A stretch of 64,000 nucleotides of DNA. Source: an uncultured cyanobacterium. Its GTDB lineage: Bacteria > Cyanobacteriota > Cyanobacteriia > Cyanobacteriales > Cyanobacteriaceae. Below the pieces are notes generated by a model, which saw only the letters and a list, made by a program, of their open reading frames with translations, was not told where the DNA came from and ran no database searches. The translations under genes and the position numbers were made by a program. This document shows, piece after piece, positions 45,535 through 47,831 of this stretch; the first letter of the stretch is position 1, and each line of letters opens with the position of its first letter. The stretch spans positions 32,001-96,000 of the forward strand of contig CAVVOP010000027.1 in the NCBI GenBank assembly GCA_963749915.1, read 5' to 3'.

Positions 45535-46308
45535 ATGCACTTAACCATCGGTTGGCTTTATCCTAAATTAATGAGTACCTACGGCGATCGAGGTAATGTT
45601 ATCTGTTTAGAAAGAAGATGTCAATGGCGTAATTTAGATGTGTCTATTTTACCCTTGGATCAGGATACACATATAGAAACATTTTCAGCATTTGATGTTA
45701 TTGTCGGCGGTGGTGCGCAGGATAGACAACAAGAAATTGTCATGCGGGATTTACAGGGAGAAAAAGCCGAGATTCTGAAACAGAAAATAAAAGCAGGTAT
45801 TCCGGGAGTGTTTACCTGTGGTTCGCCGCAATTACTCGGTAAATATTATGAACCCGCTATGGGGCAAAAAATCGACGGTTTAGGGATTTTAGACTTAGTC
45901 ACCAAACATCCAGGGCAAAATGTACCCCGTTGCATCGGCAATGTTGCCTTTGAAATTGTCCCCCCTTCTTTGGCACAAGATTTACAAGCCATGTTGGGAG
46001 AACCTCCCATGGTCGTCGGTTTTGAAAATCACGGCGGGAGAACCTATTTAGGAGATGTGTCCCCCTTGGGTAAAGTGGTGAGTGGTTATGGGAATAACGG
46101 TGAGGATGGTTTTGAAGGTGCTTTCTATGAAAACGCCATCGCTACTTATGCTCATGGTCCTCTTTTACCAAAAAATCCTTTTTTGGCAGATTGGTTAATT
46201 ATGAAGGCGATCGAACAAAAGTACCATGAAAAAGTTACTTTAACCCTATTAGATGACACCTTAGCCAACCAAGGACGTAAGGCAATGTTAAAAAGGATTT
46301 TAGCCTAA
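45535..46308 (+). CDS. CobQ/GatD-like type 1 glutamine amidotransferase
   Basis: LYPKLMSTYGDRGN, GGGAQD, CGSPQLLG, GFENHGGRT, TYAHGPLLPKNP. Confidence 0.88.
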   Translation: MHLTIGWLYPKLMSTYGDRGNVICLERRCQWRNLDVSILPLDQDTHIETFSAFDVIVGGGAQDRQQEIVMRDLQGEKAEILKQKIKAGIPGVFTCGSPQLLGKYYEPAMGQKIDGLGILDLVTKHPGQNVPRCIGNVAFEIVPPSLAQDLQAMLGEPPMVVGFENHGGRTYLGDVSPLGKVVSGYGNNGEDGFEGAFYENAIATYAHGPLLPKNPFLADWLIMKAIEQKYHEKVTLTLLDDTLANQGRKAMLKRILA

Positions 46309-46323
46309 TAGATTTTACATTTA

Positions 46324-46405
46324 TGGGCAGAGCGAGACTCGAACTCGCATGACCGAAGCCGCCACATTTTGAGTGTGGTGCGTCTACCAATTTCGCCATC
46401 CGCCC
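46324..46405 (-). tRNA. tRNA-Leu (CAA)
   Basis: Reverse complement GGGCGGATGGCGAAATTGGTAGACGCACCACACTCAAAATGTGGCGGCTTCGGTCATGCGAGTTCGAGTCTCGCTCTGCCCA; CAA anticodon, long variable arm. Confidence 0.95.
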
Positions 46406-47250
46406 GGATAATCGCCCTCACAATTATAACCTATTCTTTCTTTTTGGATCAACTGATAATAGTTGGGAGATTTTGACCAATTTTCGATTTCCTTCGCTCG
46501 AAGAATAGGTACAGGGTGGGTTAATTGTGCCGTTTGCATCTCCTGTAACATTTTCCCTGTGTCAGTATTGCTGAGCAGATTATATTCTTTTACCTGTTCC
46601 ATAAACGCCTCTAAATTTAACTGACTGGCGATACTAGGAGATCCTCCCGTTAATTTCATCAATAATGACATCACGACTTGAGGATCTTGTACTACCAATA
46701 AAGCCGAGCGATCGCAACTGAACTCAGCACAACGCACCCACTGTAATAACTGATTTTGTAAAGATTGAGCCACTAAAGTTCCCCAAGAAGGGATCAAACC
46801 TGCCGCTAACACCATGATATTAGCCAAGGAGAGATAAACCCCATGTTCGCATTTGAGATGCCCTAATTCGTGGGCGATGACCGCTTTAATTTCCTCAGGA
46901 GTGAGAATTTCCAATAAAGAAGTATGAATGACAATAAAGGGTTTTTTCCCTCGGATCGCTAAAGTATAAGCATTAGGAACCGGATTTTGTTGAATGTAAA
47001 GTTGCGGGGGTTCGAGATCTAATATTTCACAAGCCGACAATAGTAAGTTATGTAAATCCGGTAATTGTTTCTCACTGATGAGAATGCTAGAGGCGATATT
47101 GTGAAGATTCAAAAAATCTTCAGCCACCCCCCCCAAAATCCCTCTTATAGCTAAATCTAGGGCTGGAATTTGCTTTAATTGAGTCGTTGCCTTTAAATCA
47201 AGGGGGTGACGGAAATGATCTGCTTTCAATCCAATCAATTTAATAGTCAT
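46384..47250 (-). CDS. M48 family (HtpX/Ste24-like) zinc metallopeptidase
   Basis: PNAYT, AHELGH, AEFSCDR, THP; likely start MTIKLIGL at 47250; C-terminus GGWRNW overlaps the tRNA. Confidence 0.9.
   Translation of the reverse strand: MTIKLIGLKADHFRHPLDLKATTQLKQIPALDLAIRGILGGVAEDFLNLHNIASSILISEKQLPDLHNLLLSACEILDLEPPQLYIQQNPVPNAYTLAIRGKKPFIVIHTSLLEILTPEEIKAVIAHELGHLKCEHGVYLSLANIMVLAAGLIPSWGTLVAQSLQNQLLQWVRCAEFSCDRSALLVVQDPQVVMSLLMKLTGGSPSIASQLNLEAFMEQVKEYNLLSNTDTGKMLQEMQTAQLTHPVPILRAKEIENWSKSPNYYQLIQKERIGYNCEGDYPGGWRNW
46423..46452 (-). promoter_or_regulatory. Probable tRNA-Leu promoter embedded in the M48 CDS
   Basis: Minus strand TTGATC-N18-TATAAT ending 17 nt upstream of the tRNA 5' end. 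Confidence 0.6.
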
Positions 47251-47492
47251 AGTTGTAGCTGATAAATCTTGTTTTCCACATTTTAACAACAACCATCGTA
47301 AATGGAAGAAAAAGCCAGGAAAATAAAATTCATAATTCAATTTTTCTAATTAATATTTCATTCTAATCACTTTTATGTAATAATAGATAGTAAACACTTG
47401 TAAACTTTTTGCCAAGTTTTTGGCAGCATGGAGAAGTTTTATACTACTCTAGTATCACCTGATCTCTAAATAATTCAAAGGAACATAACATT

Positions 47493-47831
47493 ATGCGCGG
47501 AGTACACAGAACATCAACAACTCAAATGGAAGTGACCAGTATCCGTTTGGAAAAAACCCTCAAAGATAGTCTAAAAGCATTATCCGGCAGTCAGGGTTAT
47601 CAAACTTTAATCAGGGATATCCTCTGGAATTATGTGCAACAAAAATCTGGTGAATATCGCCCTAATTTTTCCAAAACTGATATTCGTGCCACTGTTCCCG
47701 CCACTGCTAGAAAAGATGAAAGTTGCGTGCTTAGTGGTAAATTAATTCCTGAAGATGATGAAATGCTTTTAGCTTTAACCATTCACGGTGACTTTGTGCC
47801 CGTTTCTCAAGAGGCTATCAAGGAAAAATAG
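47493..47831 (+). CDS. Conserved hypothetical protein with a ribbon-helix-helix-like N-terminus
   Basis: VTSIRLEKTLKDSLKAL...GYQTLIRDIL resembles the CopG/RHH pattern. Confidence 0.7.
   Translation: MRGVHRTSTTQMEVTSIRLEKTLKDSLKALSGSQGYQTLIRDILWNYVQQKSGEYRPNFSKTDIRATVPATARKDESCVLSGKLIPEDDEMLLALTIHGDFVPVSQEAIKEK

Follow-up and report, generated by a model that had tools for sequence, protein, structure and literature searches.

A cyanobacterial M48 peptidase gene that ends inside tRNA-Leu(CAA), and a tRNA-derived C-terminal peptide that appears to be kept by selection

In the window, the 64,000-nt stretch of cyanobacterial DNA analysed here, the gene of an M48-family zinc peptidase terminates inside a tRNA-Leu(CAA) gene on the same strand, and the promoter of the tRNA lies within the peptidase coding sequence. 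Comparison of orthologous loci confirmed the overlap and showed that it is ancient. The reading that we consider best, with a probability of about 0.7, is a locked triple overlap of coding sequence, promoter and tRNA in which the peptide spelled by the tRNA has been exapted by the protease. The codon patterns of loci where gene and tRNA have since separated suggest that part of a tRNA was turned into a stretch of protein with a use of its own.

The coordinates of the features are collected in Table 1. The peptidase open reading frame (47340..46384, minus strand) has a likely ATG start at 47250, giving a product of 288 aa, which is the length of the database copy of this M48 peptidase protein, and it terminates in GYNCEGDYPGGWRNW followed by the stop codon. 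This stop, TAG at 46386..46384, lies in the D-loop at tRNA nt 20-22, and the overlap corresponds to tRNA nt 1-22. The calls of ARAGORN and Rfam and the coordinates bore out the first-pass annotation, which had placed the last 22 nt of the gene, stop codon included, within a same-strand tRNA-Leu(CAA). The tRNA scores 56.8 bits against an Rfam gathering score of 29, is a valid tRNA gene, and is the sole CAA isoacceptor among the 41 tRNA calls of the assembly. Among 45 tRNA and tmRNA calls, tRNA-Leu(CAA) alone contains the stop of a same-strand open reading frame of at least 100 codons. A same-strand open frame of 173 codons spans the whole of tRNA-Phe(GAA) (G000 contig C8, 306910-306982, minus strand), which may be a matter of chance. 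No terminator-like site was found between tRNA-Leu(CAA) and the convergent GATase_3 gene. A 112-aa open reading frame (window 47493-47831, plus strand) is divergent from the peptidase gene and has no match in Pfam or NCBIfam.

Table 1. Features of the peptidase/tRNA-Leu(CAA) locus, in window coordinates.
Feature	Position	Strand	Evidence or remark
GATase_3 (GatD/CobQ-like) gene, convergent	45535..46308	+	3' end 15 nt from tRNA 3' end
tRNA-Leu(CAA), no encoded CCA, single copy in assembly	46324..46405	-	ARAGORN and Rfam
M48-family zinc peptidase gene (putative PGM48/Sll1280 orthologous group)	46384..47250	-	PF01435, E 4e-18, 288 aa
22-nt overlap, tRNA acceptor 5' strand and D-arm	46384..46405	-	last Pro-codon base, Gly-Gly-Trp-Arg-Asn-Trp and TAG
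Predicted pre-tRNA 5' leader, also coding for disordered linker	46406..46416	-	promoter geometry; RNA 5' ends at L120
-10 box TATAAT, Tyr-Asn in frame	46423..46428	-	17 nt 5' of mature tRNA
-35-like box TTGATC, Leu-Ile in frame, TTG being a UUG codon	46447..46452	-	promoter scan and conservation
HELGH zinc-binding motif, residues 127-131	46858..46872	-	invariant across 134 aligned orthologues

By domain and motif, the encoded protein is an M48 zinc peptidase. The Pfam Peptidase_M48 score was 66.3 bits against a cut-off of 20.3 (Table 1), and H127, E128, H131 and E176, that is HExxH and the downstream Glu, are invariant in the 134 aligned sequences. Scores against the HtpX equivalogs of NCBIfam fell below all HtpX cut-offs, the best being 76.9 bits where 341 are needed. 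In a Synechocystis-type relative, the orthologue at locus L120 is 67% identical to the window peptidase, the best match in that genome and the single one at E <= 1e-60; its peptidase and tRNA are followed by psbZ and then by a lumazine synthase gene, which we take to be the gene order of sll1280-sll1282. A tentative assignment to the PGM48/Sll1280 orthologous group was made through this gene order and through the available passages of PMC12223511, where Sll1280 is named among the cyanoglobule proteins and given as the homologue of PGM48 from Arabidopsis; the top matches of the profile search were transit-peptide-like and carried no names. The likeness to PGM48 and Sll1280, as they are described in the available passages of PMC12223511 and PMC12587418, consists of the M48 domain and the HExxH motif. 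In contrast, the eukaryotic-looking homologues lack the tail, and a tRNA overlap is absent from those passages.

Orthologous loci were taken from four sources: 31 relatives; the best 80 of 213 loci in a species-genome collection, a ranking made with a tail-bearing query and thus biased toward the tail; a phylum sample of 201 genomes, with all of its 79 matches; and a class sample, likewise of 201 genomes, from whose 159 matches 80 further loci were chosen so as to spread over families. After a 36% paralogue (L030), a locus whose contig ends before the stop (L088) and 10 duplicates had been dropped, 247 of 259 loci were retained; kin among them are not independent, and the locus counts given below are descriptive and do not serve as tests. 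Overlap with the tRNA was observed in 145 of the 247 orthologues and in at least one member of 33 of the 42 coded families, the peptidase stop being TAG in all 145. Another 78 loci, referred to as separated, encode a terminal W-x-[NDH]-W without overlap; seven lack the motif and have the tRNA within 150 nt, and the remaining 17 are without motif or near tRNA. With the window query, no peptidase gene was found in families f25 (0 of 2), f27 (0 of 16) and f42 (0 of 16). The GGWRNW ending that the first-pass annotation had given for cyanobacterial homologues proved correct in the aligned orthologues, and its supposition of an ancient overlap agrees with this distribution; the opposite pattern, homologues that stop before the tRNA, does not hold in most families. 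A recent stop loss or an annotation artefact could be ruled out, the same end being found in the 145 overlap loci and retained in the 78 separated ones.

Upstream of the tRNA, TTGATC (46452-46447) and TATAAT (46428-46423) are spaced by 18 nt and constitute the joint-best promoter-like site in 2.4 kb. The promoter scan by itself was not above chance, with 8 sites in this 2.4 kb against 6.5 +/- 2.3 in shuffles, and the support for an internal promoter therefore comes from the conservation of the boxes across orthologues and not from the scan score. A -10 box sharing at least five of the six letters of TATAAT is present in 141 of the 145 overlap loci, compared with 6 of the 78 separated loci. In 140 of these 141 it is read in frame as Tyr and the codon after it, and in 112 it lies exactly 17 nt from the tRNA. 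At the box, Tyr is encoded by TAT in 134 of 140 cases, compared with 424 of 737 Tyr codons in the rest of these genes; the codon after Tyr has T as its third base, again in 134 of 140. A -35 TTG at 17-18 nt spacing was found in 110 of the 141 overlap loci having a -10 box, and where the last helix has its first Leu, the codon is TTG in 106 of 145 overlap loci versus 19 of 78 separated ones. Many other tRNAs of the host genome are likewise preceded by a -10 box at about this spacing. The two boxes are a sigma-70-type tRNA promoter under nucleotide-level constraint. The -35 box (46447-46452, minus strand) opens with an in-frame UUG, the codon decoded by the overlapping tRNA-Leu(CAA). RNase P is predicted to cut between 46406 and 46405.

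A TATAAT/TTGATC promoter inside the peptidase reading frame, as had been suggested from the sequence alone, is upheld both by the conservation of the boxes and by RNA 5' ends at L120. Four 2026 RNA runs from two studies were aligned to this locus, which belongs to the Synechocystis-type relative and not to the window organism. The mature tRNA starts there at position 1519, and the -10 box occupies 1545-1540. Three runs show a pile of sense 5' ends at 1527, made up of 28, 63 and 17 molecules; the fourth run, of opposite strandedness, has 8 molecule ends at 1525. These ends are 6-8 nt upstream of the mature tRNA end and 13-15 nt past the -10 box, about 6 nt downstream of where transcription would be expected to start; they represent a 5' pile and not a mapped start site. 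Random-primed libraries can yield 5' piles a few nt short of the true start. Depth increased about threefold to over tenfold downstream, from 7-47 in the coding region to 225-470 from the tRNA onward in run X21, and from 51-165 to 162-384 in run X24. The depth stays above zero across the junction, and uncut protease mRNA therefore exists.

The origin of the tail was traced on an RpoB tree of 59 genomes (G232, with a partial RpoB, was excluded), rooted on two genomes classed by kinship code, which we take to be the non-photosynthetic class. The first branches are families f51 and f57, followed by f41/f58 and f42, and none of them has the tail. The tree implies seven state changes, of which the simplest account is one gain and six losses, with weak support around the gain (69 and 54). 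In both loci of f51, a Gloeobacter-group family (the L238 protein is identical to one named Gloeobacter morelensis), tRNA-Leu(CAA) lies 26-38 nt past the peptidase stop and has its own TATAAT; gene and tRNA are adjacent yet separate, which indicates that the adjacency is older than the overlap. Among 150 distant cluster representatives the tail motif was not found once; many of these proteins carry an N-terminal extension resembling a plastid transit peptide and look like plastid-targeted proteins of the PGM48 type. Any tRNA-Leu(CAA) with a full D-loop encodes, in the frame concerned, a GGWRNW-type peptide and a stop, and we therefore regard the peptide as derived from the tRNA and not the reverse. 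Counted from HPxP, the tail is 44 residues long in 114 of the 145 overlap loci, and this uniform length, together with the uniform frame, favours a single origin. That the peptide came first, or that several lineages read through independently into an adjacent tRNA, is scarcely credible. Independent read-throughs would all have produced the same peptide, and the deep branches are poorly resolved in the gene tree as well as in the RpoB tree, but the motif is absent from the basal groups and from all distant representatives, and a common tail length and a -10 box that is in the same frame in all but one locus are expected of one origin. For a peptide that preceded the tRNA, moreover, a chance match of 22 nt is not credible. 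Two f53 loci, L221 and L230, have their stop TAA within the TATAAT 5' of tRNA-Leu(CAA), a promoter double-coded in another way. They were considered as an ancestral intermediate and rejected in this role, as the RpoB tree nests f53 among overlap lineages (95% SH-aLRT clade), and they are more likely secondary losses.

The 78 separated loci fall into 18 clades of the core-protein gene tree (FastTree), a count in which some may merge; three Nostocaceae-type clades, for example, may represent one event. Where the tRNA is still downstream, its distance ranges from 25 to about 1500 nt; in other genomes it has left the locus, and all five of these that were checked contain it elsewhere. Relocated tRNAs often preserve the old coding tail and the -10 box in their upstream region, and three f15 loci (L145, L160 and L166) contain, 3' of the peptidase gene, two to three recent tandem copies of at least about 110 nt of the peptidase 3' end plus the full tRNA-Leu(CAA). 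These leader remnants and tandem copies of tail and tRNA point to a separation in which duplication was followed by a division of labour. Both copies in L166 have a stop codon where the -10 box would otherwise encode Asn. A gene for an FMN-dependent alpha-hydroxy-acid oxidase lies between the peptidase gene and the relocated tRNA in L027 (2486-3505) and in the related f7 loci L140, L150, L153 and L171; the enzyme is lactate oxidase-like and scores under curated cut-offs.

The separated genes stop with TAA (48), TAG (27) or TGA (3), and use CGT, CGA, CGC, CGG, AGA and AGG for Arg and all four codons for Gly. One representative of each of the 18 clades was compared with its nearest overlap relative. 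In the last seven codons we counted 56 synonymous and 10 replacement differences (pS 0.79, pN 0.033), against 40 and 107 (pS 0.69, pN 0.50) in the five linker codons 5' of the motif. As the codons drift synonymously in separated loci and the promoter letters are lost, the tRNA-born tail appears to be under selection at the protein level, and this retention of a tRNA-derived peptide after separation is the strongest point that the first-pass annotation had missed. Retention of the motif as an RNA element or through tRNA gene conversion was rejected, since the separated loci contain codons that the tRNA does not have. In a Pleurocapsales subgroup the ending has shifted to LGWSNW with G-W-x-N-W intact. 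As the separated class was defined by its terminal W-x-[NDH]-W, the constancy of both Trp within it is circular. The count that is free of this circularity covers the non-overlap loci, basal groups excepted, of which 78 kept the tail and 16 lost it. In most of the losses (f6, f23, f29, f53, six f28 loci, L093 and L166), everything past the last helix is truncated as a whole, in contrast to a gradual decay of the tail. With 16 losses, the tail is dispensable in about eight lineages, and on codon evidence the motif is thus selected where present, yet dispensable in some lineages. L135 of f23 ends in GLAKNWW and has the tRNA at a distance of 1487 nt; this Trp-rich ending may be a remodelled tail or one that was gained independently.

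These comparisons make it highly improbable that the tail is harmless baggage, constrained by the tRNA in overlap loci and simply undecayed in separated ones. A tRNA-Leu(CAA) with a full D-loop would spell peptide and stop anyway, and a tail that is disordered and repeatedly lost fits such neutral packing. However, a motif with synonymous sites near saturation and a pN of 0.03, next to a linker with a pN of 0.50, strongly contradicts it, and the genomes, of 3-8 Mb, are not reduced. Once gene and tRNA have separated, the linker also shrinks by up to 8 residues while the motif remains unchanged.

AlphaFold2 models of the window protein and of the short-linker L172 protein fold the peptidase confidently (mean pLDDT 84 and 85, respectively), and the tail is disordered in both, with a last-block pLDDT of 50 in the window protein and 35 in L172; the linker has a pLDDT of about 50. 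Docking of the tail onto the enzyme was unsupported in both models. A fold search of the PDB gave no match at E <= 0.001, the nearest being Ste24/ZMPSTE24 at a weak E of 0.008. Carried on a flexible and shortenable linker, the terminal G-W-x-N-W behaves like a short linear motif, and our best guess is that the tail would bind a partner or a lipid surface. A simple role as droplet anchor is disfavoured, since plant-type homologues are without the tail, yet PGM48 is a plastoglobule protein.

A cut at tRNA +1 would leave a protease mRNA that ends mid-codon, six codons short of the stop. The host encodes a tmRNA with the tag ANNIVPFARKAAPVAA, and no ArfB was found above cut-off in its genome; the cut product would therefore be tagged and tail-less. 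Ribosomes that reach tRNA nt 22 should unfold the acceptor strand and the D-arm, and cutting and translation would therefore compete. We put the odds that some RNase P cutting of the protease mRNA takes place at about even or better. In the four L120 runs, from libraries that are poor at 3' ends, no pile of mRNA ends was listed at the RNase P site. The full cloverleaf did not emerge from MFE folding, which gave only leader hairpins that were locus-specific.

The first-pass annotation had proposed in addition that tRNA maturation could control the protease level. A dedicated regulation of this kind, in which the competition between RNase P and ribosomes sets the amount of protease and keeps the overlap in place, seems unlikely to us. 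The geometry allows it, with the stop at tRNA nt 20-22 and tmRNA present, and 33 of 42 families still have the overlap; were the tail necessary for function, cut messages would yield tail-less, tagged protein. An in-frame TTG at the first Leu, seen in 106 of the 145 overlap loci, would fit a possible form of such control, in which scarce charged tRNA-Leu(CAA) pauses ribosomes at UUG, the tRNA folds and is cut, and more tRNA and less full-length protease result. Both the TTG and the persistence are, however, already accounted for, the former as the -35 box and the latter by the triple constraint. The tRNA has its own promoter and is thus independent of the protease mRNA, its own transcript is much stronger at L120, and no mRNA ends at the cut site are listed for L120, although this is a weak test. 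Furthermore, 18 gene-tree clades have left the overlap and retain the protein tail, and such repeated escape argues against a required control switch. Given the tRNA's own promoter, the lack of a listed pile at the cut site and the many escapes in which the tail was kept, control of the protease level by tRNA maturation is to be seen as a hypothesis. A combined form, in which a required motif born from the tRNA is joined to RNase P as a regulated off-switch, possibly tuned by the supply of tRNA-Leu(CAA) through the upstream UUG, is improbable. If it were true, the cut would remove exactly the motif codons and the stop, and uncut messages alone would give active, correctly targeted enzyme.

The locked triple overlap with an exapted peptide, which we prefer, would have started from a Gloeobacter-like state with the peptidase gene just 5' of tRNA-Leu(CAA) and its sigma-70-type promoter. 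Loss of the stop would then have extended translation through promoter and leader to the TAG of the D-loop, by which the protein gained a flexible linker and GGWRNW. To judge from box conservation and the RNA ends in the relative, the tRNA would be made mainly from its own promoter within the coding sequence. The new tail would have turned into a useful short C-terminal motif of the protease, as the signs of selection indicate, with binding of a partner or a membrane as its most likely role. With tail, promoter and sole tRNA all needed, the overlap could be undone only by duplication of the promoter-plus-tRNA start, after which the peptide would stay in one copy and the promoter and tRNA in the other; such separations have occurred many times. 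As long as the overlap lasts, each complete protease mRNA has a tRNA within its 3' end, and RNase P cutting probably makes a part of the mRNA stop-less, with tmRNA-tagged, tail-less products. Such stop-less mRNA would be a tolerated damper on output and not a dedicated switch.

In the tRNA punctuation of animal mitochondria, tRNA excision trims the mRNA 3' end, sometimes within the stop codon, which is restored by polyadenylation. The M48 overlap differs in that six codons would be lost and in that the tRNA has its own promoter. Same-orientation overlaps between coding sequences and t(m)RNA genes have been predicted to give non-stop mRNA by Hudson, Lau and Williams (2014; available passages of PMC4131195), who counted 250 cases with the coding sequence upstream in 2031 genomes, with an FtsW/RodA-family gene and tRNA-Ile in Helicobacter as the top case, and who discussed smpB-ssrA in Carsonella. 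The locus described here, with a valid tRNA, a Pfam-positive upstream coding sequence on the same strand and a stop inside the tRNA, belongs to this class, and as in the other members, tRNA maturation should remove the stop. Whereas the cases in the available passages of PMC4131195 comprise few events, mostly among close relatives, and the Carsonella extension is apparently random sequence, the M48 overlap is found in most sampled cyanobacterial families, includes an in-frame promoter and has an extension that was selected after separation. The terms 'peptidase' and 'M48' are absent from the main text of PMC4131195 as far as it was available, and cyanobacterial cases may be contained unnamed in its counts. 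The birth of C-termini by stop loss (available passages of bioRxiv 10.1101/737452) likewise turns formerly non-coding sequence into protein; for the M48 tail, the source is a working tRNA gene with its promoter, and later duplications split the roles.

The class of overlap is thus already known, and we found no description in the open-access literature of the cyanobacterial M48/tRNA overlap or of a tRNA-derived exapted peptide, nor of the breadth, the embedded promoter and the selection on such a peptide. The available passages of a Synechocystis Ribo-seq preprint, an RNase E paper and a mycobacterial tRNA paper do not mention the overlap. The separated loci amount to a replicated natural experiment on new protein sequence, in which the origin of the peptide can be read letter for letter from the tRNA and selection kept the peptide in many separate lineages after the tRNA constraint was lifted. 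A layout expected to make stop-less mRNA appears to be tolerated across most sampled cyanobacterial families, in genomes of ordinary size, and an unstudied motif is found on what is probably the cyanobacterial equivalent of PGM48, a senescence protease of plants. The overlap is present in a Synechocystis-type model strain, which makes the non-stop mRNA prediction of 2014 directly testable.

Two further observations were made in the RNA reads at L120. The 3' part of the peptidase gene (L120:1571-1753) is covered by antisense reads in three runs, all from one study, and one of these has an antisense start at 1599; the fourth run shows none. In three runs, transcripts of the internal promoter (L120:1228-1527) extend about 210 nt beyond the tRNA 3' end toward psbZ, and this extension may be a long trailer or a psbZ leader.
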